A DNA stretch of 64,000 nt from Bacilli bacterium (GTDB lineage Bacteria > Bacillota_I > Bacilli_A > RFN20 > CAG-826), in NCBI GenBank assembly GCA_045597865.1, contig JAZLKX010000025.1:320001-384000 (forward strand), written 5' to 3'. Positions 40,465-64,000 of the stretch are shown piece by piece. The position numbers and the translations under genes are program-made. The stretch's first letter is position 1; every line of letters starts with the position of its first letter. The notes below the pieces were generated by a model that had not been told where the DNA came from, ran no database searches, and was given only the letters and a program-made list of their open reading frames with translations.

Positions 40465-41214
40465 CTAAAATAATTTTTCTTCATTAATTATCATTTTTTT
40501 ACTTAAAAGTAAAACGCCTAGATACATAACAACAAGTATCACTGGAATTATATTTCCAAGAAAATAAAAACCAATATTTGAAACGCTAGGTACAATCATT
40601 TCAAACAAAATAGAATTAATCACATTAAACAATAAGTGAAATACAGCACACATTTCTATTGAATTTGTTTTGATAAAAATAATTGCAAGCAAAACACCCA
40701 AAGCAAATGTGTAAACAGGAACAATCAAATCATATGGATTGAGTGTTGAAATAAATGTTGTTAGATGGCAAACTGCAAATAATCCTGCAGAAATTAATAT
40801 TTTCTTCCAATTTGAGCCTTCTTCAATATTGTTAATCAATAACAATCTAAAGATAAATTCTTCATTTAAAACAACAAATACTGTTAATAAGATTTTAAGT
40901 AACACTTCTGTAGTATAACTGATATTAATATCAGTTGGAACGAAAGCTAAATACATAAAATTAGATGCTACCACAATGATTGTTGGTGCTAAAATAAACA
41001 TCATTTTTAGATTTCTAGCCTTTAATTTAATGTCAAAATCTGTTTTAAATTTAACAACTAAAAACGAGCAAATCGAAAATAGAATTTGAACTCCAATTCT
41101 ACACCACAAACAAATAACGCTGGAATTACGAATAATGAGTTCAAAAGGAAAACATGCAAACGCTATGTAAAGCAGCATTAAGATTAAAAAATTGTAAATT
41201 CTATTTTTCTTCAT
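40465..41214 (-). CDS. CPBP (CAAX/Abi) family glutamic intramembrane protease
   Basis: EEFIFR, FAVCH and HLLFN motifs all intact; about 8 TM segments. Confidence 0.88.
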   Translation of the reverse strand: MKKNRIYNFLILMLLYIAFACFPFELIIRNSSVICLWCRIGVQILFSICSFLVVKFKTDFDIKLKARNLKMMFILAPTIIVVASNFMYLAFVPTDINISYTTEVLLKILLTVFVVLNEEFIFRLLLINNIEEGSNWKKILISAGLFAVCHLTTFISTLNPYDLIVPVYTFALGVLLAIIFIKTNSIEMCAVFHLLFNVINSILFEMIVPSVSNIGFYFLGNIIPVILVVMYLGVLLLSKKMIINEEKLF

Positions 41215-41947
41215 TTGCTTTCTCGAAATATTTTTTTAATAAAAAATAAAGAGGAATACTAGCTACAAATAAAACAATACACCAAACTTGGCTTGGTGAT
41301 AAAGCAAAAGCAACTCCTCTTTCGTCTCCTCTAAAAAATTCAATTACAAATCTAAAAACTGCATAAGCTGGAATATAAATTAAGAATCCGTATTTGAATT
41401 TGTATTTCAATATTAGGAAAAGTAAAATTCCAAAAAGTACAAATAAAAATATGGACTCAATTAATTGAGTCGGTATTACTTTTCCAACTCCAGGAAATTC
41501 AATTCCGATCCAGCTATCTGTTGGTTTTCCATAGCAACATCCCGCTAAAAAACATCCAATTCTTCCAATGGCGTGCGCAAGCACGATTGAAGCAGGAGCA
41601 ATAATTAAAATATTGCCGAGGCGTAAAGTAGACTTTTTTCTTAAAATAAAGTACGTTCCTAAAAAACCACCTACACCACCAAACAAACCGCCATAGAAAG
41701 TCATTTTCCAAACCCATTTATATTGTTCTTTAAGTGAGATTGCTTCGTAAATGTTTTCAAATATAATTGAAAAAATAATGCCAAAAATTATTGCAAAACA
41801 TGCACAAATCCCTAAATCAATTAATGCAGATTTTTTCTCACCATTTTTCTTTAGAAAAATAACTGCAAGAAATACTGCAGCCAAAATTCCTATGCACATG
41901 CATACTATGTATGATCCATCGTTAATACCAAATAAGTTTGGATACAT
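41201..41947 (-). CDS. Prolipoprotein diacylglyceryl transferase family protein (divergent GCC-type Lgt)
   Basis: MTFYGG, GRIGCFLAGCCYG, PTQLIES and RFVIEFFR motifs. Confidence 0.88.
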   Translation of the reverse strand: MYPNLFGINDGSYIVCMCIGILAAVFLAVIFLKKNGEKKSALIDLGICACFAIIFGIIFSIIFENIYEAISLKEQYKWVWKMTFYGGLFGGVGGFLGTYFILRKKSTLRLGNILIIAPASIVLAHAIGRIGCFLAGCCYGKPTDSWIGIEFPGVGKVIPTQLIESIFLFVLFGILLFLILKYKFKYGFLIYIPAYAVFRFVIEFFRGDERGVAFALSPSQVWCIVLFVASIPLYFLLKKYFEKANEEK

Positions 41948-41969: not shown

Positions 41970-42929
41970 CTACTTTCTTTCGAAAACATAATCAATAAAA
42001 TGATTATACTTTTCTCCTGGCTTTAACAACAAATTATCGGCACATGAAATTTGTGGTTCGATAGCAAGTCCTCTTCTTACGTGAAGATTTGAAGTAATTG
42101 TTTCGTAATTATCCGAAAAATTGTCTGTATAAAATACAGATGAATTAAAATCTGTACTAACTTTAAGTAAATATCTATTGTTTTCTAACAAGATCTGAGG
42201 ATTTGCATCTTTATTTAAAAGTAAATAATGATCAACTCCTGAATCGTTTGGTGATTCGCTAATAGCTTTGCTAATCAGTTTCATTTCCCTAAAATCAAGA
42301 AAATCTGGTACTGACAAAATTGTTTTATCTTTTTTAATGTCATTCGATAGCAAAATGAATCTATCAGCATTCACAAATAAACTTAAATTATTAAGATCTG
42401 AATCTCCAAGATTAAAGTAAGTATGAGTTGTTAAAGAAATAGGACAAGTTTTAGATGTTGAAACATCAAAACTAATATTAATTTCATCGTGATTTTTGTA
42501 AATTTTGTAGATTATATTAATTAAAGCATCACCAGGAAAGCCTGATTCTTTGTCTATAGACAAATAGCTATATTTAATTAAAATGCAATCAGATTTTTCT
42601 TCAACAAACGAATTAAAAAACTTTGTAGCAATACCATCATGTCCACCATGTAAAGTATTTGTGCCATCATTACAACTCAAATCATAAGTAACACCGTCAA
42701 CATTTAAAGTGTGATTTCTAATTCTTCCTGCAACACGACCAACGTTTTTTCCAAAACGAACATCTTCATTCAAAAAATCAGCATCGTTTTTAACTTGTGG
42801 AGTCATAACTTCACCACAAAAATAAATTAAGTAAATTGATGCACCAAGATTATTAAAAACGACTTTCAAATTTCTGTTATTGCTAACAGTTATAAATTCC
42901 ATGCCGTTTCTAATATCTTTGCTAATCAT
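41970..42929 (-). CDS. Aldose 1-epimerase (GalM-like mutarotase)
   Basis: GRVAGRI, TLHGG, GFPG, THTYFNL, AIEPQ. Confidence 0.88.
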   Translation of the reverse strand: MISKDIRNGMEFITVSNNRNLKVVFNNLGASIYLIYFCGEVMTPQVKNDADFLNEDVRFGKNVGRVAGRIRNHTLNVDGVTYDLSCNDGTNTLHGGHDGIATKFFNSFVEEKSDCILIKYSYLSIDKESGFPGDALINIIYKIYKNHDEINISFDVSTSKTCPISLTTHTYFNLGDSDLNNLSLFVNADRFILLSNDIKKDKTILSVPDFLDFREMKLISKAISESPNDSGVDHYLLLNKDANPQILLENNRYLLKVSTDFNSSVFYTDNFSDNYETITSNLHVRRGLAIEPQISCADNLLLKPGEKYNHFIDYVFERK

Positions 42930-42934
42930 TTGAG

Positions 42935-44170
42935 TTATTTTCTTAATTTAAGAACTTTTTCTTCGTATTTTTTAACTTCTTCAAACCATTCAGCTTCGCC
43001 TAAGACGCCTTGTTTTTCACAATACTCATCCCAAACTTCATTCCATGGTAATGTTTTGATTTCTTCTTGCATAGCAAGAACTTTTGTATGATCGTAAGAA
43101 TCTTGAGCTTCTTTGAGCATATTCCATGGTGTTAAAAGAGCTTTTAGTAAAGCTTTTTCCATATTGCGAGCGCCAATAACAAGTGCTGCAATTCTATTAA
43201 TAGAAGCATCAAAATAATCGAGTCCAATATATGAACGATTTAAGCCTTCGCATTTCACTAATTCATCTGCTACATCTTGTAAATCATCATTAAGTTTTAA
43301 TACATGGTCACTATCCCATCTAACTGGTCTAGAAACATGGAATGCTAAACGCGGGAAGAATGTGAACATTGATGAGATTTTATCTGCAACATTTTCAGTT
43401 GGGTGATAATGTCCTGTATCAAGTAAATTCAAAATTCCACGAGTTGCAGCATAATTTAAGTAGAATTCATTTGATCCTGTTGTGTATGATTCAACACCAA
43501 TACCAAAAACCTTTGATTCTACTGCAACATCCATAACCTTCTTATCATATTTATAACCTGCAAGAATTTCGTCAAGAGACTCTTTGAGTCTTTGTCTTGG
43601 TCCAATTCTATCTGCAGGAACATCTTTAAGTCCATCTGGAATCCAAATGTTCATCAATGAACGTTGGCCAAGTTCTTTACCAAAATATTCAGTGACCTTA
43701 AGTGAATTAATACAATGTTTAATCCAGTAATCTCTTACTTTTTTATCTGGAGAAGAAAGCGACATTCCATCAACAAGCATTGGATGGGAGAAAATTGTTG
43801 GGTTGTAATCAAGTCCCAAACCTCTAGCTTTTGCGTATTCTACCCACTTTTTAAATTGTTCTGGGCCAATATCAGCTCTATCAACAATCTTTCCGGTTTG
43901 ATAAATGGCATGAAGATTAATCTTCTTGCTACCAGGAATGTATTTTAATGCAACGTCTAAATCTTGAGTTAATTCCTCAAAATTACGTGCTTTTCCTGGA
44001 TAATTACCAGTTGTTTGAATACCACCAGTTAATGAACCAGCATTTTCAAAACCTCCAACATCATCAAGCTGCCAACAATGTAAAGAAATCTTTGTCTTAG
44101 CAAGATCTCTCATGGCTTTGTTGACATCAATGCCATACTTTGCAAATTGTTCTTTTACAGCTTTTCTCAT
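42935..44170 (-). CDS. rhaA: L-rhamnose isomerase
   Basis: SLHCWQ.DD, TGNYPGKAR, WIPDG, ESKVFGIG, HYHPTE, HVSRPVRWDSDH. Confidence 0.97.
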   Translation of the reverse strand: MRKAVKEQFAKYGIDVNKAMRDLAKTKISLHCWQLDDVGGFENAGSLTGGIQTTGNYPGKARNFEELTQDLDVALKYIPGSKKINLHAIYQTGKIVDRADIGPEQFKKWVEYAKARGLGLDYNPTIFSHPMLVDGMSLSSPDKKVRDYWIKHCINSLKVTEYFGKELGQRSLMNIWIPDGLKDVPADRIGPRQRLKESLDEILAGYKYDKKVMDVAVESKVFGIGVESYTTGSNEFYLNYAATRGILNLLDTGHYHPTENVADKISSMFTFFPRLAFHVSRPVRWDSDHVLKLNDDLQDVADELVKCEGLNRSYIGLDYFDASINRIAALVIGARNMEKALLKALLTPWNMLKEAQDSYDHTKVLAMQEEIKTLPWNEVWDEYCEKQGVLGEAEWFEEVKKYEEKVLKLRK

Positions 44171-44172
44171 AA

Positions 44173-45471
44173 TTAATCCTCTGCTTTCATTTGAACTTTT
44201 ATGTTTCCTAAACTTGTAGCTTCAATTGGAAGAGCAACAACTTTTCTTCCTGTATGCTCTTCAACAAGTTTATTTAAATATTTATTTTTGGCGCCACCAC
44301 CAATTATATAAATATAATTGTAGTGTTTGCCAGTTATATTTTCTAATTCAACGCAAGCCTTACTATATGACTCTGCCATTGAATGATAAATCGAATTAAA
44401 TAAATCAAAATTGTCTTTTGGAGGGTTATCTTTCAAAAGATTTAAAATTGCTTGTTTCATATTTTTAGGTGCAGATAAAGATGGATCATTAACATCGAAA
44501 ATTTCTTTATATGTATTGTTGTCCAAACTCTTTTGCATTATGTAAAAATCTTTGTTTTCTTGTTCACAAACTTGTGTAACAATCCACATACCCATAATGT
44601 TTTTAAGGAACCTGATGTAATCTAAACCGCCTTCATTTGTAAAGTTAGCTGCTAAAGATTTATCTGTACAAATAGGATCTTTTGACTTAATGCCAAAAAG
44701 AGACCAAGTTCCACTACTTAATATAATTCCATCTTCTGAACAATCTATGGCTTCAAATGCGCTGCCTGTATCATGCGATGCACACAATATAACTTTAGTT
44801 TGTCCTCCAACCTCTTTTGCAACTTCTGGCAACAAATTGCCAAGAACAGTTCCAGGTTTTTCAATTTTGTTAAATAATCTTTCTGGAATGCCTAGCTTCT
44901 TAAGAATTTCTAAATCGAATGTTTTATTTTCGGCATTTAATAAAGCGCCAGTTGATTCATTTGTGTATTCATGTGATTTGATACCAGTTAATTTGTATGA
45001 GAAATACGAAGGAAGCATTAAGTAATCTGTTGCATTTTCAAGTCTTCCTTTATTCAAATCATCAAACAATTGATAAATTGTATTAAAAGCAGCGAATTGA
45101 ATTCCTGTATGTTTATATATTTCTTCAAACGACACTACTTCGTGCAATTTTTTAGATGAAAGTATGTTTCGCTTATTTCTATAGGCAAAATAAGGAGGTA
45201 TTTCTTTATCTCCATTCATTAAAACATAATCGACTCCCCAAGTATCTATAGACAAGGATTCGATTTTTCCATATTTAGCAAATGCTTTTTTGATGCCAAT
45301 TTTAATTTCTTCAAAAAACTTTGGAATATTCCAAACAAGCCCATCAGAAGAATCGTCCACTCCAGTTTTAAAACGATGAATTTCTTCTAATATGATTTCG
45401 CCATCCTTTAAATAACCAACAACATGTCGACCACTAGTAGCACCTAAATCAATTGCTAAATAATATTTCAT
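44173..45471 (-). CDS. rhaB: Rhamnulokinase
   Basis: AIDLGATSGR, IDTWGVDY, SHDTGSA, SSGTWSL, FTNEGG. Confidence 0.95.
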   Translation of the reverse strand: MKYYLAIDLGATSGRHVVGYLKDGEIILEEIHRFKTGVDDSSDGLVWNIPKFFEEIKIGIKKAFAKYGKIESLSIDTWGVDYVLMNGDKEIPPYFAYRNKRNILSSKKLHEVVSFEEIYKHTGIQFAAFNTIYQLFDDLNKGRLENATDYLMLPSYFSYKLTGIKSHEYTNESTGALLNAENKTFDLEILKKLGIPERLFNKIEKPGTVLGNLLPEVAKEVGGQTKVILCASHDTGSAFEAIDCSEDGIILSSGTWSLFGIKSKDPICTDKSLAANFTNEGGLDYIRFLKNIMGMWIVTQVCEQENKDFYIMQKSLDNNTYKEIFDVNDPSLSAPKNMKQAILNLLKDNPPKDNFDLFNSIYHSMAESYSKACVELENITGKHYNYIYIIGGGAKNKYLNKLVEEHTGRKVVALPIEATSLGNIKVQMKAED

Positions 45472-45472
45472 A

Positions 45473-46291
45473 TTATTTTTCTTTAATAACTCCAGGCATT
45501 ATTTTTAAATTCCAAAGTTTTGCTAAACCTAAAATTACATCATCTGGAATTTCATTAATAACTTTGCCTAATGTAAGCATATAGACTTGGGCTGTCTTCT
45601 CAACAGTTTCAATTAATCCAAATGCTTCATCAATATTACGGCCAACACCATAAATACCATGGTTTGTCCAGGTAACAATTCTGTGTTCTTTCATTTTCTC
45701 TGCTGTGGCATGGCCAATTTCTTCGGTTCCACAAATCATACATGGAAGAACTCCGATACCTTCTGGAAAGACAACAACTGCTTCAGTATTTGTTTTCCAT
45801 AACTTACGTGTAAATTCAATTTCATCTGTCTTCACGCATGCAGTCATACACATTGTGTATGTTGGATGTGTGTGCATAACAATTCTGTTTTCTGGATCAA
45901 TTCCTAAACGAACTGAATGAGACATTAAATGTGCAGGAAATTCAGAGGTAAATCTACCACCATCTTTGTAACCCCAAAGAAGTTTTGCGAAGCAGCCACA
46001 ATCAGAAATCTTAACTAAGCCCAAATTGGTTTCTGGATCATTCTTTACATTCTTAAAATATTTTCCAGTTCCTGTTACTAAGAAGTATTTTCCTCTAACA
46101 TTTTCTGGAGCTTCGAATCCTAATTCAATATCACGAATATATTTTCCACTTTTGAAATATTTGCTTACTTGTTCTTCGGTTAACATGCAAGAAACATTTC
46201 CGCCATTTCTTTCATCCCAACCTTGGCGATACATATTAGCTGTAACATCGCCCATTTCTTTTACAAAAGATGAATTAATAAATTTTTCCAT
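45473..46291 (-). CDS. rhaD: Rhamnulose-1-phosphate aldolase
   Basis: GWDERNGGN, TGTGKYF, TSEFPAH, MHTHPT, HGIYG. Confidence 0.96.
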   Translation of the reverse strand: MEKFINSSFVKEMGDVTANMYRQGWDERNGGNVSCMLTEEQVSKYFKSGKYIRDIELGFEAPENVRGKYFLVTGTGKYFKNVKNDPETNLGLVKISDCGCFAKLLWGYKDGGRFTSEFPAHLMSHSVRLGIDPENRIVMHTHPTYTMCMTACVKTDEIEFTRKLWKTNTEAVVVFPEGIGVLPCMICGTEEIGHATAEKMKEHRIVTWTNHGIYGVGRNIDEAFGLIETVEKTAQVYMLTLGKVINEIPDDVILGLAKLWNLKIMPGVIKEK

Positions 46292-63073: not shown

Positions 63074-64000
63074 TTAGTCTTGTTTTTTCTTAGCGGCAAT
63101 TAATGCAGCGCCAGCGATTGCTAAGCCTGTAACAACAGCGCTTGCAGCAATAACTGAACCACCACAGCCTTTCTTTGGTTCTGGTTGTGGTTCGAGTTTT
63201 GGAATAACCAAACTTTCTGCTGTGCATGCCATCTTATTTGCATCAAAGAGTTGACCGCATTCTGAACAGACATAATGTGCTTTCATTCCTTCTTTTTCAG
63301 TTGTAGCTGCAACTTCTGGAATTAATTCGCCAAGTTTATGTCCTGTTGCTGGGATAACTTCAGTCTTTGTTTCACCACATTCACAAGTGAATGTCTTGAC
63401 ACCATTTTCGGTACATGTTGCTGGTTTAGTAACTTCACCTTCACCCCATTCATGTCCTAATGCTGGATCAACAACTGGTGTTCTTGAAAGTTCTTTACCG
63501 CAGATTGAACAGTAGACAACTTCATCATGTGAACCTGCTTCTGTGCATGTTGGATTAACAACGTGTTCTTTAACAGCTGCTGCAGGTGTATGTGCAACAT
63601 CTTCTTTTGCAAGTTTTCCAGCAGCAAGTTTCCAAGATGCATAAGCATCTGCATCTCCAATTAATATGTTGCCTGCTACATCTTCAAAGTATTTTTCGCA
63701 TGTTTCACAGAAGTAAGCGGCTTTGTAGCCATCTTCCTTACATGTTGCATCTTTACCTGCAACTGGCGACATATCGTGTCCTAATGCTGGATCTGTAACT
63801 GTGTTTCTTGAAAGTTCTTTTTGACAAACTGAACAGTAGACAACTTCATCATGTGAACCTGCTTCTGTACATGTTGGATTAACAACGTTTTCAATAACAG
63901 CTGTTGCAGGTGTGTGTGGAACATCTTCTTTTGCAAGTTTTCCATCACCAAGTCTCCAAATTTCAAGAGCTTCGAAGTCACCAATTAAATCTTCACAATT
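63074..64000 (-). CDS. Surface protein with His/Cys repeats and a GCGG-TM-KKK C-terminal signal (start beyond window)
   Basis: Frame is open from 64000 (NCEDLIGDFE...PALGHD-MSPV...). Five H..TC..G..CxxC-type modules. Ends PEPKKGCGGSVIAASAVVTGLAIAGAALIAAKKKQD. Confidence 0.85.
   Translation of the reverse strand, partial: NCEDLIGDFEALEIWRLGDGKLAKEDVPHTPATAVIENVVNPTCTEAGSHDEVVYCSVCQKELSRNTVTDPALGHDMSPVAGKDATCKEDGYKAAYFCETCEKYFEDVAGNILIGDADAYASWKLAAGKLAKEDVAHTPAAAVKEHVVNPTCTEAGSHDEVVYCSICGKELSRTPVVDPALGHEWGEGEVTKPATCTENGVKTFTCECGETKTEVIPATGHKLGELIPEVAATTEKEGMKAHYVCSECGQLFDANKMACTAESLVIPKLEPQPEPKKGCGGSVIAASAVVTGLAIAGAALIAAKKKQD
63453..63988. repeat. Intragenic direct repeat with 324-bp period
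   Basis: 63453-63620 is near-identical to 63777-63944 (e.g. GAACAGTAGACAACTTCATCATGTGAACCTGCTTCTGT), with weaker similarity continuing to 63988. Confidence 0.9.

Follow-up and report, generated by a model that had tools for sequence, protein, structure and literature searches.

Locus and gene pair

The DNA analysed here, called the window throughout, is a stretch of 64,000 nucleotides (nt) from a Bacilli bacterium of the lineage Bacillota_I; Bacilli_A; RFN20; CAG-826 (contig JAZLKX010000025.1, positions 320,001 to 384,000). It contains two overlapping genes of the same orientation, one for a protein of the Lgt family and one for a CPBP/Rce1-like intramembrane protease (Table 1). Both open reading frames (ORFs) and the 14-nt overlap reported in a preliminary description of this DNA are present, and the ATG start of the CPBP gene falls inside the final Lgt codons. 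The products belong to the families named, with scores of 115.2 bits against PF01790 LGT (cut-off 24.9) and 59.1 bits against PF02517 Rce1-like (cut-off 22.4). The two genes form a module that is conserved in the order of the host and accompanies a Cys-containing tail on large secreted proteins, which makes them candidate machinery for C-terminal protein sorting.

Table 1. Coordinates of the gene pair and of the tailed surface protein in the window.
Feature	Position	Strand	Length	Basis and proposed role
Accessory Lgt-family gene	41201..41947	minus	248 aa	ORF and PF01790; proposed lipidation of the tail Cys
CPBP/Rce1-like intramembrane protease gene	40465..41214	minus	249 aa	ORF and PF02517; proposed cutter of the C-terminal helix
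Lgt stop region/CPBP start overlap	41201..41214	minus	14 nt	
3′ part of the gene for a 1225-aa surface protein, continuing past the window end	63074..64000 (C25:383074-386811)	minus		
Tail EPKKGCGGSVIAASAVVTGLAIAGAALIAAKKKQD, last 35 codons of the 1225-aa surface protein	63077-63181	minus		

Conservation of the pair

Conservation was studied in 37 genomes of the host genus and in 401 sampled genomes of the order. In the genus, the Lgt paralog was found in 6 of 37 genomes. It overlaps the CPBP gene in five of them, with different flanking genes each time, and stands alone in the sixth (G048, 45% complete). Across the order, 119 genomes had a match to the CPBP profile (E ≤ 1e-10) and 120 had one to the Lgt profile (E ≤ 1e-25), 99 of the latter with at least 200 bits. 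Both genes lie within 5 kb of each other in 96 genomes, and in 93 of these they overlap or are separated by at most 100 nt. All four arrangements occur: Lgt precedes CPBP in 35 pairs and follows it in 47, ten pairs are divergent and four are convergent. Lgt stands directly beside CPBP at each of the 30 best CPBP loci in the order. When 39 loci were compared, only Lgt and CPBP recurred in all of them, and no third conserved neighbour was found; the next commonest neighbour was common to 13 loci, all from one genus. That the genes stay adjacent although their order and orientation change argues strongly for a joint function of the two proteins, and Lgt and CPBP are a conserved two-gene module.

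The candidate C-terminal signal and its cargo proteins

The surface protein to which the preliminary description ascribed an end of GCGG, transmembrane helix and KKK, about 21 kb from the pair, is real. It ends in KKGCGGS-helix-KKKQD, lies 21.9 kb from the pair with 927 bases of its gene in the window, has a signal-peptide-like N-terminal start and contains Listeria-Bacteroides repeats. The caveat of a single visible substrate holds for the window and not for the genome, where two further tailed proteins are encoded at distances of 41 and 47 kb from the pair. All three are encoded on the same contig and carry signal-peptide-like N-termini, and in the alignment their tails read K-K-G-C-G-(G/S)-S, followed by a helix and a basic end.

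The candidate signal, as read from the aligned tails, is a charged or Pro-rich stalk followed by G-C-(G/K)-G-S-(I/V)-(I/V)-A-(T/A)-S, one helix and K/R-K-K with 4–9 further residues. A G-C-x-G motif, a helix and a K/R cluster were present in 29 of the 29 tail loci read. Among 34 distinct tails, which had been selected for G-C-x-G, the first basic pair follows the Cys by 23–27 residues (median 24), and the positions after the Cys are strongly conserved (+3 Ser in 28 tails, +4 Ile/Val in 33, +6 Ala in 30 and +8 Ser in 33). The residues between the Cys and the helix are small and lipobox-like when read backwards. Several unrelated secreted proteins end in this combination of Cys, helix and basic cluster. 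None of the NCBIfam signal models (MYXO-, JDVT-, SYNERG- and CGP-CTERM, LPXTG and others) was matched by the three 49-aa host tails at E ≤ 10; the scan yielded only chance-level matches to lectin_2 and Rumino_NPXTG, below their cut-offs.

The three tailed proteins (L005, L006; G000 C25:380001-420000) are encoded amid genes for rhamnosidases (GH106 and GH78-like), a tyrosine-phosphatase-like protein and a metallophosphatase, and the cargo may serve plant-polysaccharide use. Tails with a helix and a basic end and no Cys were also seen, in L211-L213 (genus g25) and in L226 and L228 from a metagenome-assembled genome (MAG) of Lachnospiraceae (NENKGAIIAVSAVAALG...SRKKRS; ETADNSVVYIALASVS...KRKK). 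Such tails may be plain anchors or a different sorting signal.

Co-occurrence of the pair and the tail

In the genus, strong tail matches (E ≤ 1e-5) were found in G000, G004, G013, G018 and G042, which are the five pair genomes, and in none of the 32 others; the two weak matches elsewhere that were read belong to short ORFs and lack a basic end. In the order, a profile of 11 tails at E ≤ 1e-3 gave 281 matches, spread over 93 of the 401 genomes (1–10 in each) and mostly terminating frames of 400–2400 aa. Pair and tail co-occur: 84 genomes have both, 12 only the pair, 9 only tails and 296 neither, a table that overstates the statistics and is no probability, since the tail profiles derive from genomes that have the pair, and since the genomes, being related, are not independent of each other. 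In genera that mostly lack both, the species with the pair are the species with tails (3 of 21 in g1, 5 of 50 in g20, 5 of 40 in g27 and 2 of 6 in g31). Genus g27 additionally contains one CPBP remnant with five stop codons and one low-scoring lone Lgt, both without tails.

The analysis also covered genomes beyond the order. Among the best 80 Lgt relatives from one-per-species genomes, 16 have an adjacent CPBP gene (14 Bacilli MAGs and 2 Clostridia MAGs) and 64 do not. Tails of the form G-C-(G/K)-S are present in both pair-bearing Clostridia MAGs and in none of three Clostridia MAGs with a lone Lgt. In the Clostridiales MAG UBA7568, the cargo gene, a gap of 85 nt, the Lgt paralog and an overlapping CPBP gene form one cassette (L134:460-4029); the cargo is a 651-aa secreted protein with a signal-peptide-like N-terminus and a GGCKS tail (SSGGCKSVIGTG...KKKDN). 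In a sample of the class, a close Lgt relative was found in 43 of 399 scored genomes. Five genomes with a lone paralog had no tail at E ≤ 0.01, and four of the five have a second, higher-scoring Lgt; a weak tail match in one lone-paralog genome, G502, reads as a G-C-G-S tail. No Cys-tailed cargo was found in the neighbourhoods of 19 lone Lgt relatives. Since lone paralogs are mostly without tails, the tails follow the pair and not the Lgt type alone. Directly upstream of one lone GCC-type Lgt (G027, L011:971-1372) lies a gene for a 133-aa membrane protein that has several helices and loops rich in Cys (GSCIAICGK, GGCCARS).

The Lgt paralog

Motifs were compared with those of E. coli Lgt (5azb) by alignment of a six-orthologue profile. 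FHGG of E. coli corresponds to FYGG, GRLGNFINGELWG to GRIGCFLAGCCYG and RHPSQLYE to (K)VIPTQLIE, and FRxxxEFFR is retained, which reproduces the residue-level reading of the preliminary description. The Asn and Glu of GRLGNFINGELWG and the His residues of FHGG and HPSQ are thereby replaced by Cys, Cys, Tyr and Ile, respectively. The Arg of the G-R-x-G signature and the Y...R-x-x-x-E-x-x-R of the last helices, which presumably have roles in E. coli Lgt, are present. Residues R129, C132, C137, C138, Y195, R199, E203 and R206 do not vary across 31 orthologues. Scores at the equivalog level remain below the cut-offs (TIGR00544, 52.8 against 118.9; NF000778, 116.7 against 334). The predicted model (pLDDT 89.6) has a single significant fold match in the PDB by Foldseek, E. 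coli Lgt 5azb (E 1e-5, TMq 0.65), and the paralog is accordingly predicted to have the Lgt fold.

The preliminary description used the "non-canonical" character of this Lgt as an argument, and this argument fell, since the protein differs only against E. coli. GRIGCFLAGCCYG and the Tyr at the FHGG position also occur in the only Lgt-family gene found in Coprococcus comes and in Inconstantimicrobium porci, and the sole Lgt found in Hominifimenecus microfluidus has the near-identical GRLGCFLAGCCYG and the same Tyr; the His of HPSQ is also absent in two of these three sole Lgts of cultured Clostridia. Judging by these sequences, the GCC signature is a normal Firmicute form of Lgt, and the Asn, Glu and His residues do not define activity in Firmicutes. 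The same motif in the sole Lgt of cultured Clostridia makes it probable that the paralog has diacylglyceryl transferase activity.

A quick FastTree phylogeny of 104 Lgt rows, arbitrarily rooted and without the housekeeping Lgts, places the pair-type Lgts of Bacilli in one supported clade (28 paired rows and G048), the two pair-type Lgts of Clostridia in a small clade of their own and the sole Lgts of Clostridia in the other half of the tree. No Lgt–CPBP fusion was found among 27 longer Lgt homologues, which is weak evidence. Other fusions were seen in metagenomic proteins: an Lgt domain is joined to Peptidase_C25 (gingipain-type) in P0013-P0018 and P0024 (782-785 aa) and to Peptidase_A8 (Lsp) in P0011 (462 aa), and these may be other couplings of lipidation to cleavage. 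The single Lgt protein used as a locus query gave 2 related loci only, and single-sequence searches of the Lgt and of the CPBP protein against the PDB gave nothing useful.

The CPBP protease

The EExxxR, FxxxH and HxxxN motifs, described earlier as intact, are so: E118, E119, R123, F146, H150, H193 and N197 show no variation across 31 CPBP orthologues. The homologue search with this protein returned 8 proteins, and its sequence profile had no match in the PDB. The best PDB matches of the predicted model (pLDDT 92.2) are MmRce1 4cad (TMq 0.60, probability 1.00, E 0.026) and SpdC 6u0o_A (TMq 0.61). With Foldseek E values of 0.026-0.08, above the significance line of 0.001, and no match at or below that line, the model is consistent with an Rce1 fold. 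None of the named myxosortase equivalogs (MrtX, MrtJ, MrtS, MrtC/A) includes the protein; its sole match, MrtS NF040589, scored 20.5 bits against a cut-off of 130. By analogy, the proposed sorting by CPBP would be myxosortase-like in mode and outside the named Mrt families.

Two CPBP relatives are broken by TAA stops, G299:C7:2776-3453 by five and G395:C103:40719-41306 by two, and are therefore probably decayed copies. No tail was found in G299, and two are still present in G395.

Host genome and genomic context

The host genome (1.74 Mb, 96.9% complete) encodes a second, housekeeping Lgt of 430 aa with the usual GRWGNFFNQEVYG motif on contig C28, so that the Lgt of the pair is an accessory paralog. 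Lsp signal peptidase II and one further CPBP are also present. Sortase PF04203 was not found in this genome, a search in which control genomes did match, and neither was a PBP transpeptidase domain. A probably wall-less cell fits the absence of these domains, without being proved by it. In the genus, Lgt is present in 19 of 19 good-quality genomes, the long-frame housekeeping type being the common one, and four complete pair genomes (G000, G004, G018 and G042) have two Lgt genes each. The housekeeping Lgt of the genus (L001:1426-2718, G000 contig C28) has an N-terminal membrane extension of roughly 180 residues, and its open frames reach 420-600 aa, compared with about 250-290 aa in usual Lgts.

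According to Pfam, the neighbours of the pair are an aldose 1-epimerase, a BD-FAE/S9-type esterase and an APH-type kinase. This places the pair within a string of unrelated sugar-use genes, in agreement with the preliminary description. Further ORFs beside the pair (window 41970-46291) resemble rhamnose-use genes, by eye only. The promoter and terminator scan found no promoter-like sites above the level of shuffled sequences, and all eight terminator-like matches lie within coding sequence. In a screen of sequencing runs by sequence words, none contained half of the words. RNA-library contigs from an animal-gut metatranscriptome (run X7), 95-99% alike, cover both genes, and one bridges the Lgt/CPBP overlap (window 40885-41329). 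They were not counted as evidence of expression, because DNA carry-over is possible and the contigs show no transcript. The bridging contig (record 27) has a 1-base insertion behind position 41046 relative to the window.

Proposed mechanism and alternative explanations

We consider it probable that the Lgt paralog puts diacylglycerol on the tail Cys and that the CPBP protein removes the helix. In a small-genome gut member of the Bacilli that probably has no cell wall, the pair would be dedicated to sorting proteins by their C-terminus, with large secreted proteins as its substrates. After Sec export, the helix would hold the protein in the membrane with its N-terminus outside and its C-terminus inside, and the tail Cys would then lie at the outer membrane face, in the mirror image of a lipobox. 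The accessory Lgt paralog would move diacylglycerol from phosphatidylglycerol to this Cys. The CPBP protease would recognise the lipidated Cys, as Rce1 does prenyl-Cys, and cut just after it, leaving the protein held by a C-terminal lipid. The same two steps were put forward in the preliminary description. Of the conditions that it named as refuting them, the three open to sequence analysis (a sole Lgt in the genome, adjacency that is not conserved, no co-occurrence with the tails) were checked, and none refuted the proposal. The pair, its adjacency and its co-occurrence with the tail stand as observed; what we infer is the chemistry, that is, the diacylglyceryl transfer to the tail Cys and the cleavage by CPBP, together with export, which is suggested by the signal-peptide-like N-termini.

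The loose linkage between pair and tails suggests that the system acts in trans, as sortases do. A broader proposal has, in our judgement, slightly better than even chances: that the Lgt paralog is specialised for a mirror-image lipobox and forms with CPBP a self-contained "lipidate then cut" machine making C-terminal diacylglyceryl-Cys lipoproteins. It would identify the lipidating enzyme class for all Cys-type C-terminal signals, including MYXO-CTERM, and, if true, would mean that surface proteins of wall-less gut Bacilli and some Clostridia regularly include a class anchored by a C-terminal lipid.

Several observations weigh against the proposed lipidation and cleavage. The GCC motif is unusable as evidence for a new function, being that of the sole Lgt of three cultured Clostridia. 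Most tails are distant from the pair, with only 16 of the 137 tails listed in pair genomes lying within 30 kb of it, and the co-occurrence table is inflated in the way given above. Outside the order, a CPBP gene is adjacent at only 3 of 16 close-Lgt loci, and lone paralogs of the pair-type Lgt have some other role. The three pair genomes found there had no match by the first tail profile; a wider profile detected a Cys tail in G558 and G436, and G666 was matched by neither. Within the order, the clearest unexplained exception is G234 (95% complete, same family), which has eight canonical tails (contigs C10, C30, C33, C35, C39), no detectable pair, and only the housekeeping Lgt and another CPBP type. 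Tails in G412 (83% complete) are likewise accompanied only by a housekeeping Lgt and another CPBP type, and those in G395 by the CPBP remnant with two stop codons. Twelve pair genomes lack a tail at E ≤ 1e-3, and one of the five that were rechecked, G198, has a Cys-less tail only.

The other tails-only genomes are of a different kind: G104 and G367 have both genes on separate contigs, the copies in G066, G381 and G383 are low-scoring or cut, and G211 (85% complete) has CPBP alone. The four remaining rechecked pair-only genomes proved to have tails, namely diverged G-C-(K/A/R)-G tails below the threshold in G087, G363 and G248 and one tail by the wider profile in G141. Most of the rechecked exceptions thus shrank; sorting enzyme and signal are found in the same genomes, imperfectly, with G234, G412, G666 and G198 left as exceptions.

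The tails might be processed by CPBP alone, in the manner of MrtX and MrtJ. The Lgt paralog would then be a chaperone or scaffold, or would attach another group or act at another site, and lipidation of the tail Cys, if any, would fall to the housekeeping Lgt. This is unlikely, in our view. MrtX processed its substrate in E. coli without a dedicated partner, according to the accessible text of PMC11980579, and the tail-less lone paralogs and the tails of G234 with only a housekeeping Lgt point the same way. CPBP acting alone, however, leaves unaccounted for an adjacency kept in 96 genomes through four arrangements, and the Arg, Tyr and Glu residues aligned to conserved E. coli Lgt motifs are unchanged in the 31 orthologues; the motif shared with the sole Lgt of cultured Clostridia likewise suggests a paralog that is probably an active diacylglyceryl transferase.

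A paralog resembling a working Lgt, as this one appears to, would also suit a role in ordinary N-terminal lipoprotein modification, with CPBP acting in N-acylation like LnsB of S. aureus and the tails being plain anchors that share the lineages of the pair. CPBP-like LnsB is needed for lipoprotein N-acylation (PMC7387801, available text). We regard this role as quite improbable: LnsB lacks the CPBP catalytic motifs (available text of the same source), which are unchanged here, and the invariant Gly-Cys and the strong conservation of the tail motif are more than a plain anchor requires. The coincidence of pair and tails by species in four genera mostly without either, and the existence of the cargo–Lgt–CPBP cassette in UBA7568, also argue against it. 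Finally, the two genes could be unrelated neighbours, a redundant Lgt copy beside a CPBP protein of the Abi or bacteriocin-immunity type, with the match to tails due to shared ancestry. CPBP proteins are numerous and have many functions, counts based on MAGs are noisy, and the genomes are related; yet in 96 genomes the two genes remain adjacent despite inversions and changes of order, no other neighbour is conserved, the flanks differ among five genomes of one genus, and the distribution is patchy and still concordant within genera, so that chance neighbourhood is very unlikely, almost to the point of being negligible.

Comparison with known systems

Cys-containing C-terminal signals and CPBP "myxosortases" are already known from the accessible parts of PMC11980579 and 10.1101/2023.06.07.544157. 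The text of the latter, the Haft preprint, contains neither "Firmicutes" nor "Bacillota", and full-text literature searches, in the text accessible to them and with supplements outside their coverage, returned no paper on the Lgt–CPBP pair or on the G-C-x-G/Lys tail. The pair and the tail would constitute a Cys-type C-terminal sorting system outside every named Mrt family and signal model. An Lgt paralog and a protease kept together through rearrangements in 96 sampled genomes of the order, and tied to one defined tail, point to the long-missing lipid-adding step of Cys-tail sorting. They would extend this type of sorting to Firmicutes and suggest how large surface proteins are attached to the membrane in wall-less gut Bacilli, which lack anchoring by sortase.

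The LnsA/LnsB system of Staphylococcus aureus resembles the pair in that a CPBP-like membrane protein is partnered with a lipoprotein-modifying enzyme; it differs in that LnsB has lost its catalytic motifs, the partner is an NlpC/P60 enzyme and the genes are not adjacent (PMC7387801, in the text available).

The CAAX protease Rce1 cleaves C-terminal to a lipid-modified Cys. MmRce1 (4cad) is the best fold match of the CPBP protein, and the motifs agree. The substrates of Rce1, however, are cytosolic and prenylated, with a 3-residue tail, whereas here about 30 residues including a helix would be removed at the outer face.

The classical route from Lgt to LspA has the same PF01790 family and the fold matched by 5azb. 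In both, a Cys at the membrane face would be lipidated and the adjoining helix removed, and the small residues beside the tail Cys (G, G, S) mirror the lipobox. In contrast to the classical route, the signal here is C-terminal and inverted in sequence direction, the helix would be removed by a glutamic-type CPBP protease instead of the aspartic peptidase Lsp, and the pair is found in a genome that also has the housekeeping Lgt and Lsp.

With JDVT-CTERM/MrtJ, as described in the accessible text of PMC11980579, the system shares a small dedicated cassette, sporadic among related genomes, and in L134 the cargo likewise lies beside the enzymes. The JDVT cassette consists of a protease and one cargo, whereas a transferase and a protease are combined here with 1-10 mostly dispersed cargos per genome.

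In MYXO-CTERM/MrtX, as here, the C-terminal signal has three parts and combines an invariant Cys with a single helix and a basic end on the cytoplasmic side (10.1101/2023.06.07.544157; PMC11980579, both in their available text). Likewise shared are a CPBP-family sorting protease and the same proposed order of steps; the two-step model of Cys lipidation followed by cleavage was put forward for MYXO-CTERM in the accessible parts of these sources. The hosts differ: the Myxococcota with MrtX are described in the available text as diderm and having type II secretion, whereas the system described here belongs to Firmicutes with small genomes, the host genome having yielded no sortase or PBP domain. 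The signal here reads G-C-G-G-S-I-I-A-T-S with a Lys-rich end, compared with GCGC and Arg in MYXO-CTERM as given in the same accessible text; no NCBIfam signal model matched it, and the protease scores far below the Mrt cut-offs. In the part of PMC11980579 available, the lipidating enzyme of MYXO-CTERM is stated to be unidentified and Lgt is named as the leading candidate; here, unlike at MrtX, a dedicated Lgt paralog adjoins the protease. If the proposed lipidation and cleavage are true, the pair adds to the myxosortase-type systems a Firmicute member whose genes include that for the lipidation enzyme sought, by the account in that text, for MYXO-CTERM.

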